Positions 15,957 through 58,173 of a stretch of DNA of 58,173 nt are shown piece after piece. This stretch comes from a virus. Taxonomy: Duplodnaviria > Caudoviricetes. Positions within the stretch are counted from its first letter, which is position 1, and each line of letters starts with the position of its first letter. The notes below the pieces were generated by a model. It searched no databases. It had not been told where the DNA came from and was given only the letters and a program-made list of their open reading frames with translations. The translations under genes and the position numbers were made by a program. The DNA is taken from positions 1 to 58,173 of the IMG/VR virus record IMGVR_UViG_3300036853_000164. One strand, 5' to 3'.

Positions 15957-16514
15957 ATGTTCACCGACCGCTATAGCGCTGGCCTGTGGGAACGCGCCAC
16001 CTTCGATCCGCTGTCGATGACGGCGATAGGGCTTTCGGTCGCCGGAGGCGCCCTGTCCGCGGGCGGGACGCTCGCCGCCGGCAATACAGCGGCCCAAGCC
16101 GGCAAGTTGGAGAAGGCGGCGGCGGACTACAAGGCGACACAGCTGCGCCAGAATGCGGCCCTCGCGATCAGGGGCGGCCAAGTGCAGGCGGCGGACACAG
16201 AACTTAAGACCAAGGCGGCGATCTCGTCGTCCACCGCGCGGGCTGCAGCATCGGGAGTCGATGCCGGGGTCGGCTCGCCGGCAACCAACGTCGGCGAGAT
16301 CGCGAAGCGGGGCAGCTACCTCGCGAGCATGGATTTGTGGCGGGGCCGGTCTCAGGCTAGCGGGCTCCTAAACGCGGCGCAGGCGGCAACCTACGAAGGG
16401 GACGTCGCCGAACTTGAGGGGGAGGAGAAGAAAAAGGCGTCATATCTCGCAGCCGCCGGCACGCTGGCCGGCTCGGCGGGCTCCTCTCTCGGCACCTATG
16501 CGAAAAATAGCTGA
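15957..16514 (+). CDS. Internal virion/ejection protein 1 (T7 gp14-like)
   Basis: Ala/Gly-rich with hydrophobic ends, 'AAASGVD..GSP' motif. Confidence 0.8.
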   Translation: MFTDRYSAGLWERATFDPLSMTAIGLSVAGGALSAGGTLAAGNTAAQAGKLEKAAADYKATQLRQNAALAIRGGQVQAADTELKTKAAISSSTARAAASGVDAGVGSPATNVGEIAKRGSYLASMDLWRGRSQASGLLNAAQAATYEGDVAELEGEEKKKASYLAAAGTLAGSAGSSLGTYAKNS

Positions 16515-24668: not shown

Positions 24669-26423
24669 ATGGCCGCAATCGATCGCCTTAATGGCTTGGC
24701 GAGTGAAACGACCTTGGCGATCAAAGCGCCCTGCGCAGCGGCCACGACGGCGAACATCACGCTATCCGGCATCCAGACGATCGACGGCGTGTCGGTCGGC
24801 AACGACTCCGAGCGCGTGCTGGTCAAAGATCAGACCGACGCCACGCAGAACAACATCTACATCGCGTCATCCGGCAACTGGACTTATGCCGAGGACGCGG
24901 GCGGGAATACGGACTGGGCTACCGGAACGCTTGTCTATGTGTCTGGCGGCCTGACGAATGCCGGCGCGTACCAGCAGACCGGCACCGATTCGCCGATCGT
25001 CATCGGCACATCGGACCTTGCCTTCACGCCGACCGTGGGCGCCGGGGCACTGACCCGGACTAAGCTTTCGGCGAACCTCACCCTCTACGTCGACAGCGGC
25101 ACGCTCGGCAACGACGCCAACAGCGGCCTGACCAGCGCCACTCCATTCAAGACGATCCAGGCGGCCTATGACCACCTGGCGGACACCTACGATGTCTCCG
25201 GCTACATCGCGACGATTCAGTGCGCCGCGGGGACGTACACCAGCGGCCTGCTCACCAATAAGGCCGTGATCGGCGCCAATGGGCCGAAGTCGGTGCGCCT
25301 GCTCGGTGGCGCGACCACCTCGAATTTCGTGATCTCGACCACGGGCAAGGACTGCATCAATCTCGGCGGGGCGCCGGCGACGGGGACCGCAGCCGCCAAT
25401 TCCTTCGGCAGCACCGTTCTGACCATCGGCGGCTTCAAGCTCACCACGTCGTCCAGCGGCAGCGGGATCGTGGTTTCGGGCGGCGGCGCAGCTCTCGTGC
25501 TCGGTGATCCAGTCTCGGGCTACAAGATCGAGTTCGGCTCCTGCGTCAACGATCACATGATCTTCGCGCACAACGCCTGGGGAATCGTCGGGACGGATTA
25601 TTCGATCTCCGGCGGCGCCGCCATCCACGCCGCCACGGAGTCCGGTGCCGTGCTCGCGCTGCACGGCGCCACGGTAACCATCACCGGCACGCCGGCCTTC
25701 TCGACTGCGTTCGCCTACGCCAGCACCGGCTCGAAGCTCTACATGGACTCGATGACGTTCAACGGGTCTGCGTCCGGCGTGCGCTGGCTCGCCCTCTCGC
25801 TCGGCCTCATCTATACCCTCAACGACTCCGCGACCTACATCCCCGGCAACACCTCAGGCGCCGAAGCGCTCGGCGGCAAGATCATCCAGGCCTCGGTCAA
25901 TCAATACTGGGGCGTGGCAAGCGGAGGGACGGGGACCACGCTCGCAGCCACGGGCGGCACGAGTCAGGTACTTCAACAGACCTCGACCGGGGCCGCTATC
26001 ACCGTCGGCCGGCTCTCATTGAGCGATATTTCGGGGGCGCCGCTCCCGGAGATGATCGGCGGCAAGGCGCTCGGGGTGAATTTCAATTCCGCCAACACCG
26101 ACAACGCCATCACGATCACGTCGCCGACGACGAATTATCAGGTCACTGGCGTCATCATCTGCAACGCCAACCATACGCTGACCACGGCGACGTTCGGCGT
26201 CTTCGGTGCAGCGGCGGCGGGCGCCCCTACGATTCAGAACGCCGCCACTGCATGCACGGCGACATCGAACACGGCGAACACCAACAACAACATGCAAGCG
26301 GTGACACCGACGAATTCGACCACGCTGCTGCTCAATCTGGCGACGATCTATTTCCGCATCGGCACTGCGGAGGGGGCCGCCACGACGGCAGACGTTTATA
26401 TCATCATTCAACCACTGTTCTAA
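24669..26423 (+). CDS. Tail fibre / tailspike (no signal peptide)
   Basis: 'ATTANITLSG.QTIDG..RVLVKDQTDATQNNIY' anchor, 'LYVD..GNDANSGL..PFKTIQAA', beta-rich body. Confidence 0.85.
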   Translation: MAAIDRLNGLASETTLAIKAPCAAATTANITLSGIQTIDGVSVGNDSERVLVKDQTDATQNNIYIASSGNWTYAEDAGGNTDWATGTLVYVSGGLTNAGAYQQTGTDSPIVIGTSDLAFTPTVGAGALTRTKLSANLTLYVDSGTLGNDANSGLTSATPFKTIQAAYDHLADTYDVSGYIATIQCAAGTYTSGLLTNKAVIGANGPKSVRLLGGATTSNFVISTTGKDCINLGGAPATGTAAANSFGSTVLTIGGFKLTTSSSGSGIVVSGGGAALVLGDPVSGYKIEFGSCVNDHMIFAHNAWGIVGTDYSISGGAAIHAATESGAVLALHGATVTITGTPAFSTAFAYASTGSKLYMDSMTFNGSASGVRWLALSLGLIYTLNDSATYIPGNTSGAEALGGKIIQASVNQYWGVASGGTGTTLAATGGTSQVLQQTSTGAAITVGRLSLSDISGAPLPEMIGGKALGVNFNSANTDNAITITSPTTNYQVTGVIICNANHTLTTATFGVFGAAAAGAPTIQNAATACTATSNTANTNNNMQAVTPTNSTTLLLNLATIYFRIGTAEGAATTADVYIIIQPLF

Positions 26424-26857: not shown

Positions 26858-27016
26858 ATGGCCGACAGCACCATCAAGCGCGGCCGTATGCGCAAGCCCG
26901 CAAAGCCCGCAAAGCCGCGCAAGCGCCCGATCGATCGCGTCGCGCGCAGGAAAGCGTTCATCCGAACTGAGCGGCGGGCATCGGCGCAAATGAGCATGAG
27001 GTGGTTGGGACAATGA
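26858..27016 (+). CDS. Small Arg/Lys-rich protein
   Basis: MADSTIKRGRMRKPAKPAKPRKRP..., coupled at both ends. Confidence 0.5.
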   Translation: MADSTIKRGRMRKPAKPAKPRKRPIDRVARRKAFIRTERRASAQMSMRWLGQ

Positions 27017-27687
27017 AAACGCACGTCCTGGATACCCCGAACAACGTCATCGGCCACTTCGACCGCTTGCATGCCGCCGGCTTCGACACGATCATACGTT
27101 ATCTCGCGCCGTCCGCAACTTCGTGGAAGGTTGTCCAAGAGGCTGAGGCCAGGGCGATTGCCGCCGCCGGGTTCAAGCTGGCGCTCGTTTTCGAAGGGGA
27201 TGGCCATGCTCATGGCGCTGCCACAGGCAGGCGTGATGGAAAGGCAGCGCTCACCCAGGCTGAGGCTGCGGGAGCGCCGGAAGGCGCGGTGATCTATTAC
27301 ACCGAGGACTACGACCCCAACCCGGCCGAATTTCCTGGAATTATTGCGGCGTTCAAGGCCTTCAAAGCCGTCATGAAAGGGCAGTATCGTGTCGGCGCCT
27401 ACTGTTCGGGTGCGTTGGCAAAAGCACTTATCGCGGCCGAGGTGGTAGACTTCACAAAAAACAAAACCACAGACGAGGCCATTCCCCTGATCTGGATCAC
27501 GCAGTCCCTCGGCTTCCGCGGATCGCGCGACTATCTCAACAGCGGCGAGCCGTTCGTCATGTTCCAATTGCTGCCCGGGAAGGCAGGCGGGCTGGACGAA
27601 GACCCGGACATCACATTCCACAACTATTTAAACGAGGACATAGATATCGGCGCTTTTGTGCCGTTTACTGAAGGAGCGACTGCATGA
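27013..27687 (+). CDS. Endolysin, DUF1906/Rv2525c-like (GH25-like) glycoside hydrolase
   Basis: 'IIRY', 'LALVFE', 'G..DG..A...A...GAP.GAVIYY..DYD', 'YRVGAY'. Confidence 0.8.
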   Translation: MKTHVLDTPNNVIGHFDRLHAAGFDTIIRYLAPSATSWKVVQEAEARAIAAAGFKLALVFEGDGHAHGAATGRRDGKAALTQAEAAGAPEGAVIYYTEDYDPNPAEFPGIIAAFKAFKAVMKGQYRVGAYCSGALAKALIAAEVVDFTKNKTTDEAIPLIWITQSLGFRGSRDYLNSGEPFVMFQLLPGKAGGLDEDPDITFHNYLNEDIDIGAFVPFTEGATA

Positions 27688-28035: not shown

Positions 28036-28305
28036 ATGAAGACGTTCGTAATGCTGACAGTGGCTTGTTTGGTTTACGGCCTGGCAACGCCCGCTAGGGC
28101 GCAGGATGATTCGCCGTGTGAGAAGCTGACGGACTTTGCGTATAGGTGTCCGAAGCCAACACGTCCAGATGGCCCGCCGAAGTGTCACCTCTACGGTCCG
28201 GATGACCAGATTTGTGACCGGCCTTTGACGGCCGTTCCGCAGGTTACGTACACGAAGCCCTCCAACTGCGGTTGGAACAAGGCCGGCAAATACATCTGCT
28301 GGTAA
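28036..28305 (+). CDS. Secreted Cys-rich small protein
   Basis: Sec signal ending ARA-Q; six Cys in the mature part. Confidence 0.7.
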   Translation: MKTFVMLTVACLVYGLATPARAQDDSPCEKLTDFAYRCPKPTRPDGPPKCHLYGPDDQICDRPLTAVPQVTYTKPSNCGWNKAGKYICW

Positions 28306-28315
28306 GGAGAGAAAA

Positions 28316-28705
28316 ATGATCACCCGTCGTCAATTCGGTCACCGCCTGATGGTGGGGACATCTGTTCCCGTCGTTCTTTCGATCGCCGCTTGTAGCCAAC
28401 TTACTGGCGGCCTTACGCTTGGCGAGCTCGCCGCCAAGATTCAAACCGTCTGCGGTTTCCGGACATCGATAGATTATCTCGCCGCTGTCGCTGTCTCATT
28501 CGTGGGGGCGTCCTTCAACCCAGCAGCGGCGCTCGCCGCCGATCTGGCAAAGAAGATCGAGGATGGGGTGTGCGGAGCGGTCATGGCGCACCCCACTGCG
28601 CAAACGAACGCTCTCCGCCTAGAGTCCGCGACTGCCGGGCACGTCATCACCGTCATCGTCAACGGTGTCCAGGTGAAAGGCGAGCTGACCGCCAAGCGCC
28701 CGTGA
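28316..28705 (+). CDS. Putative Tat lipoprotein
   Basis: TRRQF twin-arginine motif plus IAA-C lipobox. Confidence 0.6.
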   Translation: MITRRQFGHRLMVGTSVPVVLSIAACSQLTGGLTLGELAAKIQTVCGFRTSIDYLAAVAVSFVGASFNPAAALAADLAKKIEDGVCGAVMAHPTAQTNALRLESATAGHVITVIVNGVQVKGELTAKRP

Positions 28706-48410: not shown

Positions 48411-48564
48411 TGCGTGACGCGACGCGGCGCTGAAATACTGTGCCGGGAATGCTCGCGCATGTCTCGCCGGCGCGCGCGGATGTACCGCCGCCGGCAGCCT
48501 CAAACTTCAGTCGTCCGAGTGCCCGATACCCCCCGTTGTCATGCGCTATCGGGAGGCAGTTTTA

Positions 48565-49509
48565 ATGCCCGACAACCTCCCGATCATCCATACCTCAGAG
48601 CTATCGCAAGCCACTGACGCAGCAAGGGAATTTCTCCAATCTTCGCGCGCAGACAACACGTTGCGCGCCTATCGCGCGGCCTGGGCGGACTTCGAATCAT
48701 TTTGCCGACGCTCTGGCCTTCAGTCCCTGCCCGCCGAGCCGCAAACAGTGGCGTTTTACCTCGCTTCCTTGCCAGGTCGCGGCCTCAAGGCCTCGACCAT
48801 CAAGTTGCGCCGCTCGGCGATCATGTACGCCCACCGGCCGACGGGGCAGAACCCGGTCGACCATCCCGGCGTCGCCCAAGTCCTTGATGGTATCCGGCGG
48901 ACGCTGGCTACGGCGCCGACCAAAAAGACCGCGCTCACCGTCCAGGTGCTCGAGCGAGTGCTGCGTAAGATCCCGGATGACCTCGCCGGCGTCCGCGATC
49001 GCGCCCTGCTCCTCGTGGGATTTGCGGCCGCGCTTCGGCGCTCCGAGCTCGCCGCCCTCGATGTCACCGACATCCAACGCCACCCGAAGGGGTTGGTGGT
49101 AAAAATCCGCCGGTCGAAAACCGATCAGCACGGCGAGGGTATGGTGAAGGTCATCCCGCGGGGCAAGCGCCTCCACGTCATCGAGGCGCTCGACGCCTGG
49201 ATTGCTGCCGGCAAGATCACGCACGGGCCCTTGTTTCGGTTAGCGCGCGGGATCACGGTCGGATCGAGCAGGATCACCGACGGCCAGATCGCCCGCGTGA
49301 TCAAGTGCCGTCTGCGCAGGGCGGGGTTCGACGCCCGCACCTATTCGGGCCATTCGCTGCGGTCCGGATTCATCACATCGGCAGCGGAAGCGGGCGCATC
49401 GCTCCAATCCATCGCTGATGTGGCCGGCCATGAGAAGTTGGACACCACGCGCGGATATGTGCAGGTGGCGGACGCTTTCCAGGATCATGCGGGGCGGAAG
49501 TTCCTCTAG
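48565..49509 (+). CDS. Cre-like tyrosine recombinase
   Basis: 'NTLRAY...W..F', 'RDRALLLVGF..ALRRSEL', 'RRSKTDQ', 'SGHSLRSGF', 'GH......GY'. Confidence 0.9.
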   Translation: MPDNLPIIHTSELSQATDAAREFLQSSRADNTLRAYRAAWADFESFCRRSGLQSLPAEPQTVAFYLASLPGRGLKASTIKLRRSAIMYAHRPTGQNPVDHPGVAQVLDGIRRTLATAPTKKTALTVQVLERVLRKIPDDLAGVRDRALLLVGFAAALRRSELAALDVTDIQRHPKGLVVKIRRSKTDQHGEGMVKVIPRGKRLHVIEALDAWIAAGKITHGPLFRLARGITVGSSRITDGQIARVIKCRLRRAGFDARTYSGHSLRSGFITSAAEAGASLQSIADVAGHEKLDTTRGYVQVADAFQDHAGRKFL

Positions 49510-49526
49510 AAAGCTTCTGTGATATA

Positions 49527-49576
49527 AAGCGGTCGGCAGCGCAAGCACCTGCAGGTTCGATTCCTGCCACCGGTTT
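49527..49576 (+). other. tRNA-like fragment (T-arm plus imperfect acceptor-like stem)
   Basis: GCAGG-TTCGATT-CCTGC at 49551-49567; no D or anticodon arm. Confidence 0.5.
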
Positions 49577-49621
49577 GACCGAGGGATTGGTATCCTTGCG
49601 CTGCTACCATTGTGAGGCAGC

Positions 49622-49729
49622 ATGCTTGAGCAGATCGGCACCGTCATCGGCGTTTTTGCCGCCATTACCGTCTTTTGGTTTATCTTTGTTCGGCCGCTTC
49701 CGTGCCCTCACTGCGGGCGACGCCCCTGA
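49622..49729 (+). CDS. 35-aa membrane peptide with CxxC
   Basis: MLEQIGTVIGVFAAITVFWFIFVRPLPCPHCGRRP*; GAGG RBS. Confidence 0.5.
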   Translation: MLEQIGTVIGVFAAITVFWFIFVRPLPCPHCGRRP

Positions 49730-49922
49730 GCATCTTGTGAGCGGCCCCGTCGCACTCGGGGCCTCGTCTCAGAGGGTCGTATGGTAGGGGCAACCCCTTC
49801 AATTTGCATCACCTCCTCTCGCTGATCTTTGACGGGTGCGCGCAAATATGATTTTCCTTGCTTACTTGGGCGGCTGGTGCATTGGGCGCCGCACGCCTTC
49901 ACAATACGCAAGGAGGGGCAAC

Positions 49923-50054
49923 ATGCCTCGCGGAATTCCTAATAAGACGAAAACCAAGCTGAAGGCGAAGACAGGCCTGCGCAGCGCGACTGCGGCGAAG
50001 CCGGCCCGCGCCAAGACGATGAAGAAGACGATGACCCGCCGGAAGGCGAAGTAA
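49923..50054 (+). CDS. Small Lys-rich basic protein
   Basis: AAGGAGG RBS; MPRGIPNKTKTKLKAK...RRKAK. Confidence 0.65.
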   Translation: MPRGIPNKTKTKLKAKTGLRSATAAKPARAKTMKKTMTRRKAK

Positions 50055-50130
50055 CCGATCGCGCGAGAGCGCGACGAGCGCGGTCCGGCTATATCCCCAC
50101 ACCCCCCACCCTGTCGGCCGCGCTCCCTAT

Positions 50131-50634
50131 TTGACCAAAACCCCCAAGACGAAATCAAAGCCAAAGCGAAAGCCGTGGCGCCCGACGATTTTCACGTCCG
50201 CGCTGGCTGATCGCATTTGCGAGCGCATTGCCGATGGCGAAAGCCTCCGGGCGATCTGCCGCGATGCGAAGATGCCGGGACGGACCGCGGTGCTCGGTTG
50301 GCTGCGCTCGAACCAGGACTTTGCGAGCCAGTACGCGCGCGCGAGAGAGGATCAGGCGGACCACTACGCCGAACAGGTGGTGGATATCGCCGACGCCGCC
50401 ACCATCAAGGGTGAGAAGGTTGCCCGCCTCCGGGTCGATGCCCGCAAGTGGGCGGCCGGCAAGCTCGCCCCCAAGAAATACGGCGACCGCGTCACCGCCG
50501 AGGTCTCCGGCCCCGACGGTGGCCCGATCGAGACCAAGGAACTCTCCGAGCTCGATGCCGTGCGCCGGATCAATTTCCTGCTGCGCAAGGCCGCCAGCGC
50601 GGCCCCCAGCGCCCCTCCGAAGGAGAAGCCATGA
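50131..50634 (+). CDS. terS: Terminase small subunit
   Basis: 'ICERIADGESLRAIC', 'YARARE', 'RLRVDARKW.A.KLAPKKYGD', 'GPDGGPI'. Confidence 0.9.
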   Translation: MTKTPKTKSKPKRKPWRPTIFTSALADRICERIADGESLRAICRDAKMPGRTAVLGWLRSNQDFASQYARAREDQADHYAEQVVDIADAATIKGEKVARLRVDARKWAAGKLAPKKYGDRVTAEVSGPDGGPIETKELSELDAVRRINFLLRKAASAAPSAPPKEKP

Positions 50635-51041
50635 GACTCCGTCCCATCCTGGCAACGGCCCTCCTGTCGCTCTGGGCGGCCCTGGCGCCGGCCCAGGCGC
50701 AGGAGCAGGTCAACGACGTCGTCTGCGGCTCGGCCGTCAACGGCTGCGTGCTGCTGGCCTCGCCTGGGCGGTTCTTCGGCGCCTATGCCGAGTGCACCTC
50801 GGCGTGCTGGTTGATGGTCTTCAACTCGACCACGATCCCCACCAACGGCGCCACGACGGCCGGCAAGGCCTCCGGCAACATGGTCGACTGCATCGACATT
50901 GCGGCCAACGGCAGCCGGTCGGTCAACTACATCTACAACCCGATCGTGTTGAATGTCGGGATCACCATCGCCATCAGCTCGACGGCGTGCGCCACGCTGA
51001 CCTTGAGTGCGGTGGCGTTCATTCACGGGACGGTGCAATGA
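50631..51041 (+). CDS. Signal-peptide beta-rich Cys-containing protein
   Basis: MRLRPILATALLSLWAALAPAQA-Q; six Cys. Confidence 0.75.
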   Translation: MRLRPILATALLSLWAALAPAQAQEQVNDVVCGSAVNGCVLLASPGRFFGAYAECTSACWLMVFNSTTIPTNGATTAGKASGNMVDCIDIAANGSRSVNYIYNPIVLNVGITIAISSTACATLTLSAVAFIHGTVQ

Positions 51042-52117
51042 AAGCCCTCGCGCTCTCGGCTCTTGCGCTCGCGCTGCTTGGTGCGCCGGCCTGTGCGCAG
51101 GTCGTCAGCGGCGGCGGCTCGTCCTCGCTCGTCATCGGCAACCCGGTAGTAGGTGGCGCCAACGGCTGCCTTGCCTATCAGAACGCATCAGGCAATATCG
51201 CCTGCGATGCCTCTGTCACGCGCGACGCAAACGGAAAGATCAACGTCCCGTCAGGACAGGGCTATTACTTTGGCACTGTCGGGCAGGGCATCGCCGGCAT
51301 GAATTCAACGGGCGCGGGCAACCTGTTTTTTCTAACCAATTCCGTAAATGCTGCGCAACTTGTCAACTCTGCCACTAACACCAATGAATGGAAGTGGCAG
51401 GGCAACGCGGTCACGCTGACAAACTTCGCCGCCGCCACGCTTCACATGGGGTCGGTTGACGCGGCGTCTCCGGTTGCTCAGACATTCGGCGTCCAGGGCG
51501 TGTCGACCGGCACAATGGACACGGCAGGGGCCAACTGGACGCATCAGGCATCGCAGAGCACGGGCTCTGGGGCAGGCGGGAGTTTCATCTTCCAGGTTTC
51601 CCCGGCGGGCGGCTCCGGAACGACGAAGAATGCATTTGCTACAGCTCTGACGATTGATTCAACTAAACTCGCCACCTTCGCGGGCAGCATCAGCGCGACG
51701 CTCGCATCTGCGACCGGCACCAACGCCGTTTGTAATACGCCTGGCACGTCGACCGCGTTGACGGTGCAGGTGTGGGCTACGGGTTGCGCGGCAAGTTCCG
51801 CGCGGTTCAAAGATGAGATTGCCGCGCTTGATCGGCAGAAGGCTCTCGAGATGGTGCTGAGGCTGCAACCGGTGTCGTATTTCTATAAGCCTGAATTCAA
51901 CATGGGTGCCGACAAGCACATCGGGTTCACGGCTGAGCAGGTCGCGACAGTCGATCCTTTCCTCGTCACCTTCGAGGACGATGGTGCGACCCCGCACGCA
52001 GTCAAATACAACGAGATGGCCCCGTTGTTCGCCGCAGCAATTCAGCAGTTGAAGGCTGAAATAGATGCGATTAAGGCCGCTAGGCCCGAAGTCGGTTCGA
52101 CGAAGGTAGCCCGGTAA
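51038..52117 (+). CDS. Signal-peptide tail-fibre-like protein with C-terminal S74 intramolecular chaperone
   Basis: MKALALSALALALLGAPACA-Q; 'SSARFKDEI..L.LQPVSY.YK..HIGFTAEQV..VKY...L..AIQQL'. Confidence 0.85.
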   Translation: MKALALSALALALLGAPACAQVVSGGGSSSLVIGNPVVGGANGCLAYQNASGNIACDASVTRDANGKINVPSGQGYYFGTVGQGIAGMNSTGAGNLFFLTNSVNAAQLVNSATNTNEWKWQGNAVTLTNFAAATLHMGSVDAASPVAQTFGVQGVSTGTMDTAGANWTHQASQSTGSGAGGSFIFQVSPAGGSGTTKNAFATALTIDSTKLATFAGSISATLASATGTNAVCNTPGTSTALTVQVWATGCAASSARFKDEIAALDRQKALEMVLRLQPVSYFYKPEFNMGADKHIGFTAEQVATVDPFLVTFEDDGATPHAVKYNEMAPLFAAAIQQLKAEIDAIKAARPEVGSTKVAR

Positions 52118-52119
52118 CC

Positions 52120-52455
52120 GTGGATTATGTTCTCCCCGTCCCGTGGGCGTCCGCGCATGTCACTGGCGTCAACTCTGTCGGCACCTCGCCGGTGCAGATC
52201 ATCCCAAGCAATTCGTGGCGGCGGGCGATCAAGTTCCATAACCCCGGCACGGTGACCGTGTACTGCTACCCATCCGAAGTCGGGGGATCGCCGTCTCTTT
52301 CTGCTCTTGGCGGCTGCTTCGTGATATTTCCAGGCAGTGAGGTGACTTTCTATGGCGGAGGCTCGGGCGCGGGAGGAGCTGTGACTGGGGCATGGTTCGC
52401 GTTTGCGGCGAGCGGCGGCGGCAATCCGCTGACGGTCATGGAGATGGTGTCCTGA
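52120..52455 (+). CDS. Small beta-sandwich virion-type protein
   Basis: 'VGTSPVQI.P.N..RR.I.FHNPG..TVY'. Confidence 0.65.
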   Translation: MDYVLPVPWASAHVTGVNSVGTSPVQIIPSNSWRRAIKFHNPGTVTVYCYPSEVGGSPSLSALGGCFVIFPGSEVTFYGGGSGAGGAVTGAWFAFAASGGGNPLTVMEMVS

Positions 52456-52457
52456 CG

Positions 52458-54098
52458 TTGCGATCGCTCGCGCTTGCTAGCGCCTTGTGGGTGCTGGTTC
52501 CCGGCGTGGCCGCGGCTCAGAACGAGGTCGGCCCGACCCCTCCATGTGGAGATGTTTCCAATCGATTGGCGACGACGGCATTTGCCCAATGTGCCGGGGG
52601 GGCGATCGTTCTCTACGCCACCAGTTTCTCTGGTGTGACCGCTGGCGAGCAGATATCGGCTTGTGTAGCGGCGCTCCCGGCGAGAGGCGGGATTTGTGAT
52701 GCACGGGGCGTCACGTCCGGAGCCACCATTCCCGCCATCACTCTGGCCAACAGCGGTGCCACGGTGCTCGGCCCTTGCGGGCTGATCACGGTGACCGGCA
52801 CAATCCAAATCTACAACCCAAGCGGAGTCCAGGGATTTCGGTGGCTCGGCTGCGGCGGCACCGTGAACAACACAGGGACGAGTTTTACATGGGCCGGAAA
52901 TGCGATCGATCCGTTGTTTAGAATTCGCGGGGTCAGAGATTCGGAGTTCTCTTACTTTGGGGTGAATTCGAGTATCAACGCCCCGCTGGCTACCGCTATC
53001 AGGCTGGAGACGGCGACCGGTACTACGTCCACCAGGCGAATTTTTCGCGACATCACCATCAACGGGACTAATTCCGCGGTCAACGGCCTGACGCTAGGGA
53101 TGCAATGGTGTACCGGGGACAATTGCGGGGGCGCCGGCGGAGACGCCAACAACGATATTGACTGGGTCGAAAACGCCACAGTCATCAACTACTTCAACAC
53201 CGCATTCTCCATCGAGGGGACACAAGTCAAGACAATTCAATTTGTCAATTCACAGTTTTCCAATGGTCAACGAGGCGTAGCTACAAATCAGGGTGTGATC
53301 CAGGCCGGAAGCTTTCGATGGAAGGGCGGTGGCGGCGGGAGCAACACGGTAGCTGATTTTGATCTCGGTGCTCCCACGGACACGATCGTAATCGAGGGGT
53401 GCAACACCGAGGGGTCCAATCGGCTCCTGAACATAGCAAACGCGACAAGCTCGACATTTCCAATTACCATCCTAGGGTGCAGATGGGCAGCTAACAATCT
53501 GAATGTAGACAACTTCGTGGTCAATTATCGGGATCACGGGCCGCTGAATCTGATTGGAAATAGCATCGAAGCCCCGGCGACTAGCCGGACACCTAAATTC
53601 CAAATCGATAACGGAGGAGGCGTTTCGGCAGGCAACGCGATTGGTAACAGCATCGCGTGGCAGACGAGCATAACGGTGGCGAGTCAGCCTTTTGTGTGCA
53701 CTCCAACACCCTGCTGGAACACGAAGGGCAACATTCTCACCAATAGCAGCAACGTCCCTCAATTCATGCTCTACGACTACAATGCGCCTGGAACTCTGCC
53801 GACCGGCAATACAGGAACATGCTCGACCGGGGTGACGGTTGCAGGGGATGCGAGGCGGGGCACATGGACATCGACAGCCGCCTGCGCCCTGACGACGGGC
53901 ACGATCATCCTGTCGGGCCTGCCTACTCAACCGACCGGCTATCTGTGCAGGATGAGCGATCAAACGACAGCTGGTGTCGTCATTGAGGAAACAGCATCAG
54001 GGACAACCTCCGTGACGTTCACGGTTCGGGCGCTTCCGACAGGAACCATTCAGGTCGCGGCCAATGACGTGCTGCAATATGAATGCTCGGGATACTGA
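52458..54098 (+). CDS. Signal-peptide tailspike-like beta-helix protein
   Basis: LRSLALASALWVLVPGVAAA-Q; 'SNRLATTAF' fibre motif; Asn/Gly/Thr-rich repeats; many Cys. Confidence 0.75.
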   Translation: MRSLALASALWVLVPGVAAAQNEVGPTPPCGDVSNRLATTAFAQCAGGAIVLYATSFSGVTAGEQISACVAALPARGGICDARGVTSGATIPAITLANSGATVLGPCGLITVTGTIQIYNPSGVQGFRWLGCGGTVNNTGTSFTWAGNAIDPLFRIRGVRDSEFSYFGVNSSINAPLATAIRLETATGTTSTRRIFRDITINGTNSAVNGLTLGMQWCTGDNCGGAGGDANNDIDWVENATVINYFNTAFSIEGTQVKTIQFVNSQFSNGQRGVATNQGVIQAGSFRWKGGGGGSNTVADFDLGAPTDTIVIEGCNTEGSNRLLNIANATSSTFPITILGCRWAANNLNVDNFVVNYRDHGPLNLIGNSIEAPATSRTPKFQIDNGGGVSAGNAIGNSIAWQTSITVASQPFVCTPTPCWNTKGNILTNSSNVPQFMLYDYNAPGTLPTGNTGTCSTGVTVAGDARRGTWTSTAACALTTGTIILSGLPTQPTGYLCRMSDQTTAGVVIEETASGTTSVTFTVRALPTGTIQVAANDVLQYECSGY

Positions 54099-54102
54099 GG
54101 CA

Positions 54103-54342
54103 ATGATACGCATCGCCGCTATTCTGCTCTGCCTTGCCACATCAGCCATCGCCCAACCAATGCCCGCCCTGGACCCAGCCATCCAGCTCGGCGTCTGCCG
54201 CCAGGACCGCTCCCGCTTCTTCCTCGAAAGTGAGCAGGCGCGCTCGTACGTGGAGCAGTATACAGCCGAAATCGCCGACCTGAAAAAGAAGCTCGCCGAG
54301 GCGGAGGCGAAGCTTTCCCTCGCCCCACCATCAAAGGAGTAA
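54103..54342 (+). CDS. Signal-peptide coiled-coil protein
   Basis: MIRIAAILLCLATSAIA-Q; C-terminal heptads. Confidence 0.7.
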   Translation: MIRIAAILLCLATSAIAQPMPALDPAIQLGVCRQDRSRFFLESEQARSYVEQYTAEIADLKKKLAEAEAKLSLAPPSKE

Positions 54343-54346
54343 CCCA

Positions 54347-54706
54347 ATGGCCCTCTCTGATCTGCGCGACAAGGTCCTTCTGTGGATGCACGGGCGCCGG
54401 CTCGGCATCGTCGGCGACGGGCAGAGTAGCGCCGTCCTCGTGCTCGATGGCAAGGCGGTCGGCTCGACGCGCTCCGGTCCGGCCGCAATTTCGCTGCTCG
54501 CGACCAGCGGGTCTGGCGCCGGCGCAGTGACGCTTACCGGGGCGGTTGCGGGCGACAATGTGGCAAAGGTGTACGATCAGAATGCGGCCAACTGGGCCGA
54601 TGTGACCTCGTCATTCGAGGGCACCATCACCGTCGCCAACCAGATTCAGCAAACCGCGTCGACTTCTGGTCATCAGATCATCGTCTATCTGCAGCCGCAG
54701 AGCTAA
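54347..54706 (+). CDS. Hypothetical virion-type protein
   Basis: AAGGAG RBS; 'LHGRRLG'-like N-terminus, beta-rich C-terminus. Confidence 0.7.
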   Translation: MALSDLRDKVLLWMHGRRLGIVGDGQSSAVLVLDGKAVGSTRSGPAAISLLATSGSGAGAVTLTGAVAGDNVAKVYDQNAANWADVTSSFEGTITVANQIQQTASTSGHQIIVYLQPQS

Positions 54707-54709
54707 ACC

Positions 54710-56422
54710 CTGTCTCTCCTCGACGACCTGCTCGGCCAGGTCCGCACGCCCAGCCCCGAGTTCGAGGCGCTCCTGCGCAAGGTGGCGCGGGAGAACCCGG
54801 AGGCCGCACGGGAGGCGGCAGAGGCCGCGTGGTCGGCCAATCCTGGCCCGCAGTCCGACGCCTATCACAGCCTCGCGGACGAGACCTTCTACGGCGGCCA
54901 AGCCGGCGGCGGCAAAACCGATCTCATCATCGGCTTGGCCATCACCGCGCATCGCCGCTCGCTCATCCTGCGCCGCATCAACAAGGATGCGGTCAAGCTG
55001 GTCGAGCGCGCCGAGGAGATCATCGGCCATCGTAACGGCTACAACGGCCAGCTGCAGCGGTGGAAGCTCGGCAAGCGCCTGATCGAGTTCGGCGGCTGCG
55101 AGCAGGAGGGGGACAAGCAGCGCTACAAGGGCGATCCGCATGACCTGATCGCCTTCGACGAGGGCTGTGATTTCCTGGAGGCTCAGTTCAGGTTCATCAT
55201 CGGCTGGAACCGGGCGGCCGACCCCGGCCAGCGCTGCCGGGTGCTGGTGACGTCCAACCCGCCGACCACGGCCGCCGGCCTGTGGGTCATCAAATACTGG
55301 GGCGCATGGCTCGACCCGAACCACCCGAATCCGGCGTTGCCGGGCGAGTTGCGCTGGTACACGACGGTCAACGGCGTCGATACCGAGGTGGACGGGGCCG
55401 GGCCCCATGTGATTGAGGGCGAGCGCGAGCCGGTGATGGCGCGTTCGCGCACCTACATACCGGCGGCACTCTCGGACAACCCCGATCTCGCGGCGACGAA
55501 TTACGGCTCGGTGCTCGCGGCCCTGCCCGACGAGCTCCGCCGCGCCTACCGCGATGGTGACTGGTCCGTCGGCCAGCGCGACGACGATTTTCAGGTAATT
55601 CCCACCGCCTGGATCGAGGCCGCTATGCAGCGGTGGACCGACAAAGTGCCGCGCACCGGAATGACCGCGATGGCGGTCGACGTGGCGCCAGGCGGCGGCG
55701 ACCAGCGGGTGATCTGCTGGCGATACGATGGATGGTACGCGCCGTTCGTGGCGGAACGGGTGGTCGACAAGACGGGCCGGCTCACGGCCTCTGAGGTGGT
55801 CAAGCACCGCCGCAATCATTGCCCTGTCGTGGTCGATCTCGGTGGCGGTTGGGGCGGCGACGCGCTGATCGCCATGAAGGACAACGGCATCGAGGTGGTG
55901 CCGTTCAATGGCGTGCAGGTCTCGCATGGGCGCACGCGAGACGGCAAGATCAAGTTCCGGAACAAGCGAGCCGAGGCAACTTGGAAATTCCGCGAGGCGC
56001 TGGACCCTTCCCAAGAGGGCGGCTCAATCGTGGCGCTGCCGCCCGATACCGAGCTCAAGGCGGACTTGGCCTCGTACCGTTGGGAAAACACCCTCAACGG
56101 CATCCTGATCGAGGACAAGGAGAAGATGCGGGAGCGGCTGGGCCGGTCTCCCGACAAAGGGGATGCCGCGATCATGTGCCTCTCGGAAGGCGCTCGTGCG
56201 GTGGAACGGATGGGCCGCGCCGGCCGCAATGCCATGCCGATCAAGGCGAATATCGGCGGCCGGCAATTGGCGACGGTGAGGCGGTTCGTGGCTATCGCGC
56301 TGGAATGGCTCAGGGGGCCTGCGGCGTGGCGCCGGGTGGAGGTGCTGCTTGCGCGGGATCAGGTCGACGCCGTGCGCCGGGTGAACCTCATGCTGCGGAG
56401 CGCTGGTTATGACGTCTGCTGA
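54710..56422 (+). CDS. terL: Terminase large subunit (probable CTG start)
   Basis: 'PGPQ', Walker A 'YGGQAGGGKT', Walker B 'IAFDE', 'TSNP', nuclease 'AVDVA.GG.D' and 'RSPDKGDA'. Confidence 0.92.
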   Translation: MSLLDDLLGQVRTPSPEFEALLRKVARENPEAAREAAEAAWSANPGPQSDAYHSLADETFYGGQAGGGKTDLIIGLAITAHRRSLILRRINKDAVKLVERAEEIIGHRNGYNGQLQRWKLGKRLIEFGGCEQEGDKQRYKGDPHDLIAFDEGCDFLEAQFRFIIGWNRAADPGQRCRVLVTSNPPTTAAGLWVIKYWGAWLDPNHPNPALPGELRWYTTVNGVDTEVDGAGPHVIEGEREPVMARSRTYIPAALSDNPDLAATNYGSVLAALPDELRRAYRDGDWSVGQRDDDFQVIPTAWIEAAMQRWTDKVPRTGMTAMAVDVAPGGGDQRVICWRYDGWYAPFVAERVVDKTGRLTASEVVKHRRNHCPVVVDLGGGWGGDALIAMKDNGIEVVPFNGVQVSHGRTRDGKIKFRNKRAEATWKFREALDPSQEGGSIVALPPDTELKADLASYRWENTLNGILIEDKEKMRERLGRSPDKGDAAIMCLSEGARAVERMGRAGRNAMPIKANIGGRQLATVRRFVAIALEWLRGPAAWRRVEVLLARDQVDAVRRVNLMLRSAGYDVC

Positions 56423-56597
56423 CGACAGGCCGATGCGCTTGAGTGCTCGCGGCGTGGTGGTGGCGCAGCTTGCGACGTTCACCCCCGAGAGGCCGGTGGC
56501 AGACCTTCTGAAGGCGGCTGACGCTTTGCTTCGGGACCTGCAGGCGCATGGATACTTGGCCGATGAAGCGCGACCGCCCCTTCATCCAGGCCGGTGA
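56409..56597 (+). CDS. Hypothetical protein
   Basis: 62 aa in the operon. Confidence 0.5.
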   Translation: MTSADDRPMRLSARGVVVAQLATFTPERPVADLLKAADALLRDLQAHGYLADEARPPLHPGR

Positions 56598-56793
56598 CCC
56601 GCACCGGCCCTATAGCGAAATCCTGGCCGAGCGCCGCATCACCGATCCCGCGGCCGTCGTCCGGGGCCAAATCGCCTTGCTCGAAGCTGAGGCCACAGCG
56701 CACGCCGACCCCGCCGAGCGCAAGCGCCTGCAATGCGAGGCGGAGGAGTTGCGTTGCCAGCTCGAGCACCGGCCGCCTCCGAGGGAGTTCTGA
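56563..56793 (+). CDS. Hypothetical protein
   Basis: Helical, in the operon. Confidence 0.5.
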   Translation: MKRDRPFIQAGDPHRPYSEILAERRITDPAAVVRGQIALLEAEATAHADPAERKRLQCEAEELRCQLEHRPPPREF

Positions 56794-56795
56794 CG

Positions 56796-56954
56796 ATGGA
56801 CATGGATGTGATTGGCGGGATCGCCCTCATCATCGGACTTTTGTTGTTTGCCCTTTGCTGTGGCAATTTCGCAACGTGCGAGCCCTTGCTTCACAGGCCC
56901 GGCTCCCGTCCCGGCGCGGGCTTCCGAAGCTGGTGGCGCAAAGAGGATCGGTGA
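56796..56954 (+). CDS. Small membrane protein
   Basis: MDMDVIGGIALIIGLLLFALCC...; GGGAG RBS. Confidence 0.5.
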   Translation: MDMDVIGGIALIIGLLLFALCCGNFATCEPLLHRPGSRPGAGFRSWWRKEDR

Positions 56955-57184
56955 TGACCAATATCTTCAAAGGCCCCGCGATGCCGGCCATCCCGGAGCC
57001 GAAGCCGCCCCCGCCGATCCCGGACATCAATTCGCCAGCAAACCTGGCGGCGCAGCGCCTTGCCACAGCCAAGGCGAATTCGGCCGGGCGCACGTCGACA
57101 CAGCTCACGTCGTCGCCTGGGGCCGGGACGCTGGCGGGCTCCGCAATGGGCGGCGCCTATACGGGGACGAAGGCGGGAGGGTGA
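56954..57184 (+). CDS. Small Pro-rich pre-portal virion protein (T7 gp7.3-position-like)
   Basis: 'IFKGP..P..PPPP.PD...GR.ST.LT' pattern. Confidence 0.65.
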   Translation: MTNIFKGPAMPAIPEPKPPPPIPDINSPANLAAQRLATAKANSAGRTSTQLTSSPGAGTLAGSAMGGAYTGTKAGG

Positions 57185-57185
57185 G

Positions 57186-57701
57186 GTGGCGAACGTAAAT
57201 GACTACGATCCAGGCGTGGACGGCCTGATCCCCAGCCGCCAGTCCATGGCCGCAAAGTCAAAGTTGAAGGTCATTCAGTCTGCGGCCGAGGAGCCGCTGC
57301 TCGCCGCGCTGCTGGCACGCCTGCCGGGCCCCGGTCAGCCGTTCCCCGCGGACAAGCGCGCGAATTGGCTCCGCATGTGGGAGATGGCGTTGGATGATCT
57401 TTATGGCGTGACGGACGAACTCTTCTATCCGCCTGCCGACGCGCCGAAACAGGATGGCTCGCCGGGCACCTTCGGTCCCGGAGTTACGATCCCGATGGCC
57501 AAGCCACAGCCCGCGCTCCCCTTCTACATCGACCCCGCCGGCTATGCCCGCCGCTCCAATGGCGCCCCCATCAATCCGCAGGATGCCGCGGGCGCCACCA
57601 TCTACGACCAGCGAGGTGAGGCTGGCGACCTCCGTGCCATCATCTGGGCCGACGGCCGCACCGGCGTCGCCGGCCTGCAGCTCGATATCGCCGCGGCATG
57701 A
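57186..57701 (+). CDS. Hypothetical protein
   Basis: GTG start after GGAGG; 'L..LP.PG..F....R..WL'. Confidence 0.65.
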   Translation: MANVNDYDPGVDGLIPSRQSMAAKSKLKVIQSAAEEPLLAALLARLPGPGQPFPADKRANWLRMWEMALDDLYGVTDELFYPPADAPKQDGSPGTFGPGVTIPMAKPQPALPFYIDPAGYARRSNGAPINPQDAAGATIYDQRGEAGDLRAIIWADGRTGVAGLQLDIAAA

Positions 57702-58039
57702 CCTGGAAATCTTGGTCTTTGCGCGATGTGCGCTGGACTGCAAGAGGAGAACCCATGGGGCACAAGCTTCTGATTGAGCCGCCGTTCGTGCTGATGAGGT
57801 ACAACAACGACCAGGAGACGCGCGGCCCTGGCGGTCTCATTCCGCCTTGGGCAGAGCCGAAGTTATTCGTGCTTACCGGCAATGAGGAGCATGATTGCGT
57901 CCAGGTGCATCCTATCGCATGGGTGGTCGCAAAGACGCTTGCGCCCGAGGCCATGGCGCGTCTCTCCCAGCAACTCCGCGATGCCCGAGCCGCTGATGTT
58001 GGCGCCAAGCACCGCGCTGTGACTCCCGCGGCGGCATGA
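57698..58039 (+). CDS. Hypothetical protein
   Basis: 113 aa, ATGA overlap. Confidence 0.55.
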   Translation: MTWKSWSLRDVRWTARGEPMGHKLLIEPPFVLMRYNNDQETRGPGGLIPPWAEPKLFVLTGNEEHDCVQVHPIAWVVAKTLAPEAMARLSQQLRDARAADVGAKHRAVTPAAA

Positions 58040-58047
58040 TCTCGTGC

Positions 58048-58173
58048 CCACAATAGGAATAGCTCTAATTCTACTCGCGCTTGCACTCGTCTTGAGAAAT
58101 CAAGCGGCCGAGTTTGAAGGGCCTATTCCCTATTGGTGGCGGCGAAGTCGGCAATAAGACCCGATGCGTGAGC
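58048..58173 (+). repeat. Terminal direct repeat / circular overlap, right copy
   Basis: Identical to 14-139. Confidence 0.95.

Follow-up and report, generated by a model that had tools for sequence, protein, structure and literature searches.

Exported Proteins and Receptor-Binding Proteins of Tailed Phages

Tail fibres and tailspikes set the host range of tailed phages and, of all phage parts, are the most frequent targets of engineering and of the search for depolymerases; in the textbook account of morphogenesis all of them are made in the cytoplasm. To our knowledge, no tailed phage assembles virion parts from the periplasm, and the literature searched for such assembly gave nothing either way. 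The S74 fibres, such as the endosialidases of K1-type coliphages, and the beta-helix tailspike depolymerases of Sf6, HK620, and Klebsiella and Acinetobacter phages are resembled by two products of the gene cassette described here: g2 carries an above-threshold S74 domain (PF13884) with invariant Ser and Lys residues five positions apart, the model of g4 matches such spikes, and both share with them a modular exchange with true fibres. The known S74 fibres and tailspikes, however, are cytoplasmic in both synthesis and assembly, start with a virion anchor and are poor in cysteine, whereas the cassette proteins have a predicted cleavable leader and conserved cysteine pairs.

T5 Llp, Cor of T1/phi80-type phages, and lambda Lom and Bor are exported proteins encoded within or beside the tail-fibre locus and travel with it; these are of small size, either lipoproteins or outer-membrane proteins, and have no relation to fibres, whereas the cassette lacks lipoboxes and encodes fibre and spike homologues. 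Beta-helix polysaccharide lyases and hydrolases secreted by bacteria are like the cassette in leader, disulfides and fold, and chromosomal “tail fiber domain” proteins with signal peptide and S74 domain have, as would g2, an S74 chaperone outside the cytoplasm; both are single chromosomal genes, whereas the cassette consists of phage late genes in a conserved multigene block at the loci of receptor-binding proteins (RBPs). Late phage products using host Sec, as those of the cassette would, include the signal-peptide endolysin Lys44 of Oenococcus phage fOg44 and the T4 antiholin RI (PMC6116005) as well as XepA of PBSX (PMC6834076). Unlike the cassette, these are lysis enzymes or regulators with no RBP architecture and no multigene block.

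The Interval between terS and terL

The window, that is, the whole stretch of DNA analysed, is the 58,173-nt IMG/VR record IMGVR_UViG_3300036853_000164 (Caudoviricetes) and represents a soil-type phage, which an integrase gene (48541–49509) marks as temperate. As reported in the first-pass annotation, six tightly packed genes lie between the terminase genes, and both their coordinates and their order were borne out. The left border is terS (50131–50634, + strand) for an Sf6-type small terminase (PF20901, E 4.9e-41; phrog_1482, E 2.9e-48), the right border terL (54782–56422, + strand; phrog_2, E 2.1e-29), which is preceded by a 75-nt gap. All six genes are on the + strand: g1 (50631–51041, 136 aa) shares 4 nt with terS at the terS stop, and g2 (51038–52117, 359 aa) likewise shares 4 nt with g1; then follow, each after a gap of 2 nt, g3 (52120–52455, 111 aa, GTG start) and g4 (52458–54098, 546 aa, TTG start) and, each after a gap of 4 nt, g5 (54103–54342, 79 aa) and g6 (54347–54706, 119 aa).

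That the block splits the terminase pair, a point stressed in the same annotation, is true but less odd than implied, because the interval is variable in relatives. The gene order in terL relatives (n = 15, 59–95% identity) is terL-portal-capsid-tail protein, and the terS–terL interval in relatives of the lineage holds no, two, or several genes; in L056-58 the interval upstream of terL is occupied by signal-less genes of RBP size, one of which encodes a GDSL esterase domain together with sub-threshold CBM and ConA-like matches. The interval is a hot-spot for variable cargo and RBPs in this lineage. In L004/L006/L007, a signal-less g4 homologue with a fibre N-terminus (P0011) is encoded directly upstream of a 521-aa ORF; this ORF was taken as terL on position alone, and the search gave no terL match for it.

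The GC content at third codon positions is 0.65 in g4 versus 0.82–0.85 in terS and terL, and 0.65–0.71 over g2–g4 versus 0.82–0.92 in neighbouring genes. This suggests recent acquisition and, like the integrase, would suit a lysogenic-conversion (moron) island, the exported products of which would be made by the prophage and would alter the host surface or add to it, either by serving as adhesins or by removing receptors; lambda lom and bor, which are signal-peptide surface genes adjoining tail-fibre genes, provide a precedent. Such an island is nevertheless improbable here. A consensus scan of 49400–57200, in itself weak evidence, gave no promoter-like site on the + strand (the sole hit being on the − strand) and nine terminator-like sites versus 4.7 ± 2.6 in shuffles, which is no excess, none of them flanking the block, so that neither a promoter nor a terminator of its own became apparent. 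Further, start and stop codons that overlap or lie 2–4 nt apart tie the genes to terS and terL, and late structural operons surround the block in every locus seen.

Predicted Export Signals

Signal peptides were called with a home-made rule for n-, h-, and c-regions, which asks for a positive n-region, an uncharged hydrophobic h-region of 8–18 residues, and small residues at −3 and −1. It called four of the nine proteins tested, the very four to which Sec leaders ending in AxA-Q had been ascribed earlier; cleavage is predicted at APA-QAQE or AQA-QEQ in g1, ACA-QVVS in g2, AAA-QNEV in g4, and AIA-QPMP in g5, and no signal peptide was called in TerS, g3, g6, TerL, or the tail fibre encoded at 24669. 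As the background of the rule is 145 positives in 5000 60-mers drawn at random from the amino-acid composition of the window (2.9%) and 7 in 81 crudely called genes of the window, leaders in four of six neighbouring genes are far beyond chance. A survey of signal retention, which the first-pass annotation had proposed, found the leader kept in 59 of 65 g1, 55 of 107 g2, and 21 of 27 g4 homologues (M-start proteins, counted without weighting for relatedness and with metagenomic starts as called by others); a lack of leaders in the homologues, which had been named as an outcome that would tell against export, was thus not borne out.

The conserved leaders belong to three unrelated protein families from more than 30 loci. 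Their h-regions of 14–18 residues are followed by AxA and mostly by Gln at +1, which is found, without any scoring bonus for Gln, in 40 of 55 leaders of the g2 family, 27 of 59 of the g1 family, and 10 of 21 of the g4 family. Among other observations, this pattern and its conservation in unrelated families make it very unlikely that the N-termini are uncleaved anchors, protein-protein handles, or artefacts of wrong starts, and the proteins ordinary cytoplasmic virion parts. Such a reading can draw on the home-made nature of the rule, on the TTG start of g4, and on the public call of g4 (P0007), which begins nine codons downstream of 52458 and thereby cuts off the n-region; automated annotation, then, can hide leaders. 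The g4 homologue P0008 has a full signal peptide, whose start corresponds to 52458. Between the window and L025, homologous DNA extends from terS through g1 and stops just past the g2 leader (window 50492–51139, 80.7%), which indicates that the leader belongs to the conserved gene, and the pattern of cysteine pairs follows the presence of the leader (see below). A receptor-blocking lipoprotein of the Llp/Cor type was also considered, and not borne out: a lipobox would be defined by an invariant Cys as residue +1 of the mature protein, whereas the cleavage contexts here are AxA-Q, and the g2 leader has at −2 a Cys that varies, being G or S in the close homologues P0181 and P0287.

Cysteine Pairs and Probable Oxidative Folding

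The predicted mature proteins contain 6 (g1), 4 (g2), 16 (g4), and 1 (g5) cysteines. An even, non-zero count is found in most signal-peptide forms (56 of 59 for g1, 51 of 55 for g2, 18 of 21 for g4) and in 16 of 52 signal-less relatives of g2. Cysteine makes up 1.31% of g2-family proteins with a signal peptide versus 0.22% of those without (Mann-Whitney p 6e-14), the respective values for the g4 family being 2.57% and 1.07% (p 8e-4). Within the latter, six cysteine columns are conserved in all 15 signal-peptide forms aligned; where homologues have virion-type N-termini and no leader, the pairs are lost, three such g4 homologues keeping 7 of 18 cysteine cells and 1 of 9 pairs. Retained leaders, even cysteine counts, and the loss of pairs in signal-less homologues support export and disulfide folding well, as the first-pass annotation had supposed, and, judged from these sequence features, g1, g2, g4, and g5 are very probably exported and oxidatively folded. 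Export signals and paired cysteines together make it seem that host-recognition proteins complete their maturation in an extracytoplasmic compartment, in which no phage particles are assembled. Virion disulfides can apparently also form without export, according to PMC13576161.

The Probably Exported Proteins

g1, the first gene of the cassette, models as an exported jelly-roll protein with six cysteines, in keeping with its earlier description as a 6-Cys beta protein; the AlphaFold2 model is a beta-sandwich (pLDDT 89.6). The best structural matches, PBSX XepA (Z 7.3), the HFTV1 turret (Z 7.0), and C1q/TNF domains (Z around 6), are all within the noise range of the tool, and no Pfam or PHROG family was matched.

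For g2, the S74 fibre proposed earlier was confirmed by a Peptidase_S74 domain at the C-terminus (PF13884, residues 253–310 of 359; E 3.5e-12, 46.9 bits against a cut-off of 22), along with a match to the tail fibre family phrog_1980 (E 9.3e-16). C232, C250, S253, and K258 are invariant in an alignment of 20 sequences, and S253 and K258 correspond to the Ser/Lys dyad of endosialidases at the putative S74 self-cleavage site. Signal-less relatives of g2 have N-terminal peptides of 20–45 residues, which are absent from the signal-peptide forms.

g4 models as an exported right-handed beta-helix, tailspike- or depolymerase-like, with an additional C-terminal domain of low confidence. The AlphaFold2 model has a confident helix core (residues 50–440 mostly with pLDDT >90; mean 75.7), and in the PDB Foldseek ranks phage tailspikes and depolymerases of capsule highest (7w1c, 6e1r, 6c72, and the Sf6 tailspike; E 4e-5 to 2e-4), which, with the 16 mature cysteines, agrees with the Cys-rich, tailspike-like beta-helix protein of about 546 aa described at first. 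Its homologues P0011, P0013, and P0022 begin with a fibre-type N-terminus of about 80 aa; g4 instead has the leader and about 30 residues before the helix, and an N-terminal particle-binding domain was rejected for it on these grounds. The wider family comprises 1638 representatives at E <= 1e-3 and includes many signal-peptide proteins of varied length.

g5 is predicted to be an exported helical protein with one conserved mature cysteine (C32, invariant in six sequences). It had been called a coiled-coil protein with a leader; the signal peptide stands, while the coiled coil comes down to a sequence resembling heptads and to CENP-F_leu_zip, a Pfam match below threshold (E 0.054). Homologues 54–68% identical to it are encoded directly after g4-like genes in L003, L005/L027, L008, and L024, and further ones (L028, L032) within cassettes of signal-peptide genes in which g4 found no match. 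An i-spanin was considered for g5 and dismissed, as no lipobox ORF overlaps or follows it and g6 has no leader; further, the g5 homologues of the complete genome G002 are flanked by fibre-like genes, not by lysis genes.

Recurrence and Locus Context

g1, g2, g4, and g5 recur as three to seven consecutive signal-peptide genes on more than 30 IMG/VR phage contigs, the block lying inside late or structural regions in every locus seen; in the complete genomes G001 and G002 it directly follows genes for ejection/internal virion proteins. No homologue from a cultured phage was found, g4, g1, and a 651-aa cassette protein being unmatched in the phage collection beyond one distant hit, and no description of such a cassette was found in the literature.

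Modules are exchanged with true fibres. The separate, signal-less tail fibre noted earlier at 24669 (24669–26423, + strand), in the slot after the ejection-protein genes, matches phrog_11518 (tail fibre, E 5.6e-14) and other PHROG tail-fibre and virion families; its C-terminal domain (441–583) is met again in cassette proteins of other phages, some of which have a signal peptide and some of which do not, and the beta-helix core of g4 is common to homologues with fibre N-termini. In G002, a signal-less protein of 163 aa aligns through its residues 4–33 with residues 22–50 of its neighbour, a 651-aa signal-peptide protein, so that the common motif begins about three residues past the predicted cleavage site. 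Two unrelated cassette families, those of g1 and g2, also have N-terminal “address” modules in common, directly after the leader: module 1 is found in 4 of 67 g1 and 10 of 112 g2 homologues, module 2 in 6 of 67 and 2 of 112, respectively.

Each of the three whole records (the window, G001, and G002) has at least one signal-less fibre-like gene. In G001 it encodes a 326-aa Collar-domain protein (PF07484, E 6.2e-13), which is a conventional fibre; in G002 no obvious fibre gene was seen besides that for the 163-aa protein within the cassette. Since the window and G001 keep conventional signal-less fibres, the cassette is not needed to explain infectivity. The endolysin of the window (27001–27687) has neither a signal peptide nor a SAR-like N-terminus, and a membrane-breaching holin is therefore expected.

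Proposed Periplasmic Maturation and Possible Fates of the Products

We tentatively propose, while giving the full chain of events somewhat less than an even chance, that g1–g5 (50631–54342) form a mobile, late-expressed cassette of RBP-type proteins destined for the periplasm and finally for the virion. As their anatomy shows, the genes share a transcript with the terminase genes and are coupled to them in translation; g1, g2, g4, and g5 would be exported via Sec and cleaved at AxA-Q, a step strongly supported by sequence, and would gain disulfides after export, as even cysteine counts and pair loss in signal-less homologues suggest. Domains and models indicate that g2 may then trimerise and remove its own S74 chaperone, that g4 may fold into a beta-helix cleaving or binding glycan, and that g1 may serve as a lectin-like jelly-roll head and g5 as a small helical partner of g4-type genes. 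In the last and least certain step, the holin, whose opening of the inner membrane the phage needs anyway for its signal-less endolysin, would let oxidised fibres and spikes meet finished particles, on which they would dock as accessory RBPs beside the ordinary fibre encoded at 24669. The gain would be a virion with disulfide-stabilised host-recognition parts, impossible to obtain in the reducing cytoplasm. The position at RBP loci, the modules exchanged with true fibres, and the “address” modules after the leader argue for docking; the absence from signal-peptide forms of the virion-anchor N-terminus (about 80 aa) of signal-less homologues argues against it.

That loss of the anchor is also what one would expect if the products were exported and oxidised but never bound to the particle, g4 acting as a free glycan depolymerase and g1 and g2 as lectin-like binders. 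They would build up in the periplasm or be secreted by the host, be released at lysis, and remove or cover receptors (capsule, EPS, or O-antigen) of the dying cell, its debris, and its neighbours, which would aid escape and spread of the progeny or block superinfection. All of the export and disulfide evidence fits such free factors, as does the retention of a signal-less fibre-like gene in the window, G001, and G002. The many signal-peptide proteins among the 1638 g4-family representatives, and chromosomal S74 proteins with signal peptides (8 hits in a sample of 201 genomes from a single bacterial order, several leaders being read by eye), show that such folds work as ordinary secreted proteins. 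PMC6116005 also offers, with Lys44 and RI, precedents for Sec-exported late phage proteins and describes free depolymerase around plaques; the top structural match of g1, though at noise level, is the “PBSX exported protein XepA.” Yet an enzyme released by lysis needs no leader, as cytoplasmic over-production suffices, and free factors leave unexplained the co-travel of three to seven different exported fibre-like proteins with small partners, the occupancy of RBP loci, the N-terminal modules common to unrelated cassette proteins after the cleavage site, and G002, where the 163-aa cassette protein is the only obvious fibre gene. We hold free factors to be a real possibility, if on balance a doubtful one.

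The recurrent mobile block thus means either that virion assembly spans two compartments or that phages export a set of RBP-derived soluble factors, both of which are undescribed in the literature searched. It is possible, though for now conjectural, that a guild of uncultured tailed phages builds its host recognition in two compartments, heads and tails in the cytoplasm, and fibres, spikes, lectin-like heads, and small helpers by Sec export, disulfide bonding, and trimerisation in the periplasm, these being joined to the particle only within the seconds that separate holin triggering from envelope rupture. If so, tailed-phage morphogenesis would for the first time be seen to include a step in the periplasm, by which RBPs could be armoured with disulfides. 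In practice, “tailspikes” of this kind would probably misfold when expressed in the cytoplasm for biotechnology, and the prediction of host range from RBP genes must consider the compartment.

The Signal-less Genes g3 and g6

The first-pass annotation had taken g3 and g6 for virion-type proteins without leaders that serve as two cytoplasmic adaptors. Signal-less they are; the virion-type assignment has behind it the viral hypothetical proteins that are their language-model neighbours and, for g6, also its position. Neither gene is present in the homologous cassettes of G001, G002, L024, and L008, so they are not conserved partners and the adaptor idea is unsupported. g3 matched no Pfam or PHROG family, and the Atlas clusters closest to it consist of viral hypothetical proteins, 100–115 aa long; only L036 and L049, or 2 of 27 g1-bearing loci, have homologues (35%) in the vicinity of g1-like genes, and g3 is an unexplained passenger. 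g6, by sequence comparison, is the lineage's resident small fibre-like gene upstream of terL and lies outside the mobile block: its Atlas neighbours are viral, with one cluster auto-named “putative tail fiber” (score 0.92), a homologue is located immediately 5′ of terL in L063 (42% identity, E 6e-15), genes with an N-terminal HG[KR][RE]xG motif, read by eye, take the g6 position in nine further terL relatives, and the family is found directly upstream of terL in relatives that have no cassette.

A leader-bearing gene block between terS and terL

The first-pass annotation had described six tightly packed genes separating the terminase genes, and this description holds. Between terS (50131–50634) and terL (54782–56422) neighbouring starts and stops overlap by 4 nt or lie 2–4 nt apart, and the 75-nt gap between the sixth gene, g6 (54347–54706), and terL is the only wider one. 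Signal peptides are called by a home-made rule in g1 (50631–51041), g2 (51038–52117), g4 (52458–54098) and g5 (54103–54342) and not in terS, g3 (52120–52455), g6, terL or the conventional tail fibre at 24669; applied to 5000 random 60-mers the rule makes 145 calls, it picks out 7 of the 81 crudely called window genes, and a stricter version finds only two further leader genes genome-wide, at 28036 and 28316. The g2 product carries Peptidase_S74, the model of g4 is a beta-helix whose matches are tailspikes of phages and depolymerases acting on capsules, and the model of g1 is a confident jelly roll without a convincing relative; fold searches with it returned noise-level rows only (Foldseek best E 2.5e-3; VIA best Z 7.3), and no family was assigned. 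Complex prediction for g4 (residues 21–546) with mature g5 (18–79), both supplied as alignments, gave a score of 0.00 and points neither way. Membership tests rejected g5 as a spanin and g2 as a lipoprotein.

One adjustment to the block concerns g4: its public gene call (P0007) starts nine codons downstream of 52458 and so loses the n-region of the leader (52458–52484), but the homologue P0008 has a full leader starting at the position equivalent to 52458. Automated gene calls may systematically hide leaders of this kind. A first crude gene caller, relying on GC3–GC2 contrast, omitted g1–g4, because these are rich in Gly, Ala and Thr and GC3 is lower in g2–g4, and not because the region is non-coding; homologues at 47–87% identity in other contigs identify g1–g4 as real genes. 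No promoter-like site was found on the + strand across the cassette region, nor any excess of terminator-like sites, and the cassette (g1–g5), judged from its sequence, lies within a single late transcription unit.

Evidence for export and disulfide formation

The first-pass annotation proposed a survey of signal retention in homologues, and leaders are indeed kept in many of them: in raw counts, which ignore shared ancestry and depend on leaders called with the home-made rule, a leader is present in 59 of 65 M-start proteins (67 homologues) of the g1 family, 55 of 107 (112 homologues) of the g2 family and 21 of 27 (all close homologues, all M-start) of the g4 family. Within the g2 set almost every one of the nearest relatives that carry S74 has one, and the 52 leaderless members are more remote and begin like typical phage fibres. 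By the same raw counting, the predicted mature chains of leader forms contain an even, non-zero number of cysteines in 56/59 (g1), 51/55 (g2) and 18/21 (g4) cases, as against 16/52 among the leaderless g2 relatives; cysteine content is 1.31% in leader versus 0.22% in leaderless forms of the g2 family (p 6e-14) and 2.57% versus 1.07% in the g4 family (p 8e-4). The trend points the same way in three unrelated families, as would be expected if folding were oxidative and took place outside the cytoplasm. All 15 leader forms in the g4 alignment share six invariant cysteine columns; at these columns P0011, P0013 and P0022, homologues with a fibre-type N-terminus at the leader junction, have cysteine in 7 of 18 cells, with one of nine putative pairs intact.

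Glutamine occupies position +1 in 40 of 55 g2-family leaders under a rule without a Gln bonus. An S74 chaperone is compatible with export, since chromosomal S74 proteins with leaders exist in bacteria (eight S74 matches in 201 sampled genomes of one bacterial order, several with leaders by eye). Leaders, even cysteine counts and the loss of cysteine pairs in forms with fibre-type N-termini make it well supported that the cassette proteins are, as first proposed, exported and oxidatively folded. That the leaders are not export signals at all is very improbable in the face of these trends.

Each of two short modules with a disulfide loop (C…C-PVSxANPLP and CAYN…QCD) occurs right behind the leader in proteins of the g1 as well as the g2 family, the carriers including P0183, P0296, P0339 and P0346 in one set and P0331, P0343 and P0263 in the other; both modules are absent from the window's own g1, g2 and g4.

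Recurrence in other phages

Recurrence was surveyed by tblastn of the six window proteins against loci retrieved with family alignments; a search for related loci with the single g4 sequence gave no match, and loci were matched only with the g4 alignment. A contig scan with alignment A1 returned only two contigs from metagenome-assembled genomes (MAGs). In the phage genome G001 (69.9 kb, terminal repeats, 100% complete) g2-, g4- and g5-like genes are adjacent, and in G002 (66.6 kb, 100% complete) g1-, g2-, g4- and g5-like genes are followed by that of a 651-aa leader protein; in both, the block stands immediately 3′ of large ejection/internal virion proteins. Other viral contigs have four (L019), five (L020) or three (L021–23) consecutive leader genes. 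The order in L024 is an 82-aa signal-peptide gene, g2-like, g4-like and g5-like genes and a segment resembling the 24669 fibre, and a Bryobacteraceae MAG contig (L008) has a g2-like C-terminus, g4-like and g5-like genes and a 136-aa signal-peptide gene.

Scanning with the g1 alignment yielded 27 viral loci. Their 290 kb lying no more than 6 kb from a g1-like gene contain 105 + strand ORFs with a leader, and the other 117 kb contain 12. A leader was called automatically in 15 of the 27 g1-like ORFs and is obvious by eye in the printed frames of seven more (L034, L036, L038, L044, L045, L046, L050); the others are apparently 5′-cut (L029, L041, L048) or ambiguous (L030, L043). At many of these loci a 420–476-aa leader protein has the g1 jelly roll as its C-terminal domain. 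The window terL found no match in G001–G003, phages whose terminases are unrelated to it. The cassette is a recurrent module, and what had been observed in one genome extends to a phenomenon at the level of families.

Searches of 50,697 deposited phage records with g1, g4 and the 651-aa protein gave no homologue apart from one distant match, and g2 matches cultured phages through its S74 end only. The building blocks are well known (S74 fibres, spikes with a beta-helix, Sec leaders), and exported late phage proteins are known, among them the signal-peptide endolysin Lys44 and T4 RI (PMC6116005) and XepA (PMC6834076). In the full-text literature, as far as its incomplete coverage reaches, no description was found of a tail fibre or tailspike with a signal peptide, of a tailed phage in which homologues of fibres or spikes combine cleavable leaders with conserved cysteine pairs, or of a mobile multi-gene block of this kind; the cassette may be undescribed.

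Resident and cargo genes of the terS–terL interval

Fifteen loci with terL relatives (59–95% identity), 14 of them including upstream sequence, were compared. The gene directly 5′ of terL is usually small and carries HG[KR][RE]xG at its N-terminus, as read by eye for 9 loci out of the 14; in L063 BLAST matches it to g6 (42% identity, E 6e-15). In L055, L061 and L062 terS adjoins terL directly, and L059 ends at the contig edge. Because terL relatives usually have such a gene, g6 is, on this comparison, a resident of the lineage and lies outside the cassette. Only 2 of 27 loci have a g3 homologue (35%) close to a g1-like gene, and neither family searches nor cluster neighbours gave g3 an assignable role. 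The first-pass annotation had cast g3 and g6 as two cytoplasmic adaptors, which these results do not support. Nor are they leaderless g1 paralogues or pieces of the 24669 fibre, as pairwise BLASTP (g1–g3, g3–g6, g3 and g6 against the fibre) found no relationship.

What else the interval holds varies: it may be empty, contain a pair of small genes (L053, L054) or carry signal-less genes of the size of receptor-binding proteins (RBPs; L056–58). In L056 (1294–6104, 5′ of terL) a 676-aa protein, in which Lipase_GDSL_2 scores above threshold and CBM_4_9 and Laminin_G_3 (ConA-like) score below it, is followed by an 801-aa protein with 12 Cys; L058 has the same layout, and L057 and L066 encode a related signal-less protein of 857 aa with 15 Cys 5′ of terL. 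Cys-rich proteins without leaders are thus also found at this locus. The interval is accordingly a variable hot-spot of host interaction, and its cargo in the window phage is g1–g5.

At this genome end the nearest relative is L025, which has the order terS, g1, a 217-aa protein and a signal-less 783-aa protein; the 217-aa protein shares the leader and first mature residues of g2 on a different body, and DNA homology to the window ends at 51139, just past the g2 leader. The lower GC3 of g2–g4 (0.65–0.71 versus 0.82–0.92 in g1, terS and terL) fits an exchange of modules 3′ of a conserved 5′ handle.

In L066 (6417–8981) the terL relative is one 854-aa ORF, its halves split by roughly 310 extra residues which may represent an intein or other insertion.

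Possible fates of the exported proteins

Starting from the leaders, cysteine pairs, S74 domain, beta-helix and shared late transcription unit that the sequence displays, the proteins would be exported by Sec and cleaved by SPase I before Gln, the chains would undergo DsbA-type oxidation, g2 would trimerise and process itself through S74, and g4 might bind or cleave a glycan. Subsequent docking on the particle is a serious possibility, if something short of probable. The block occupies RBP loci and exchanges bodies with true fibres; in G002, where the 314-aa SU10-type adaptor and the large proteins were scanned, no further fibre is obvious, the fibre-module set matches only the cassette region, and a leaderless 163-aa protein has an N-terminal motif in common with the mature end of the 651-aa protein. 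The Cys-loop modules following the leader in g1- and g2-family members look like a shared address, and the window endolysin (27001–27687) lacks an export signal, so that a membrane-breaching holin should mix periplasm and cytoplasm before rupture. However, the usual anchor domain is lost in leader forms, and ordinary fibres are kept in the window and G001. Action of the proteins as free soluble factors is only slightly less likely than docking. Remodelling of the cell surface by proteins expressed from a prophage is improbable; the phage does encode an integrase (48541–49509), and the cassette lies in a late unit.

Genome layout and neighbouring genes

The window is an entire IMG/VR phage record of 58,173 bp, listed as linear, for which the CheckV estimate is 86%. 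Its last 137 nt (58037–58173) repeat its first 138 nt (2–139) at 98.5% identity, and in L052, whose terL is 95% identical, terL leads directly into portal and then capsid genes, which suggests that the record is an essentially complete genome, circularly permuted or terminally redundant. The gene order is podovirus-like: portal (130–1800), capsid (3862–4707), a 1004-aa tail protein (11929–14943), internal virion proteins (16514–19189 and 19190–24316), the signal-less fibre (24669–26423) and the endolysin, with early genes on the opposite strand. At the DNA level, terL is about 71% identical to that of Bordetella BPP-1-type phages.

Right after the integrase gene, 49540–49580 resembles the 3′ half of a tRNA, with the T-arm-like GGTTCGATTCC followed by an acceptor-like end, a stretch typical of an attP core; a whole tRNA was not found there with ARAGORN. 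Directly 5′ of terS, 49923–50054 holds a 43-aa, extremely basic (Lys/Arg/Thr-rich) ORF with a strong AAGGAGG ribosome-binding site. Beside the lysis region, 28036–28305 encodes an 89-aa leader protein (…ARA/QDD) with six mature Cys, which an 84-aa protein near the G001 cassette (…AFA/QDD, six Cys) resembles by eye only. The 129-aa product of 28316–28705, 3′ of the endolysin gene, has a twin-arginine-like n-region (TRRQF) and a lipobox-like LSIAAC and is a candidate Tat-exported lipoprotein, possibly an outer-membrane spanin.
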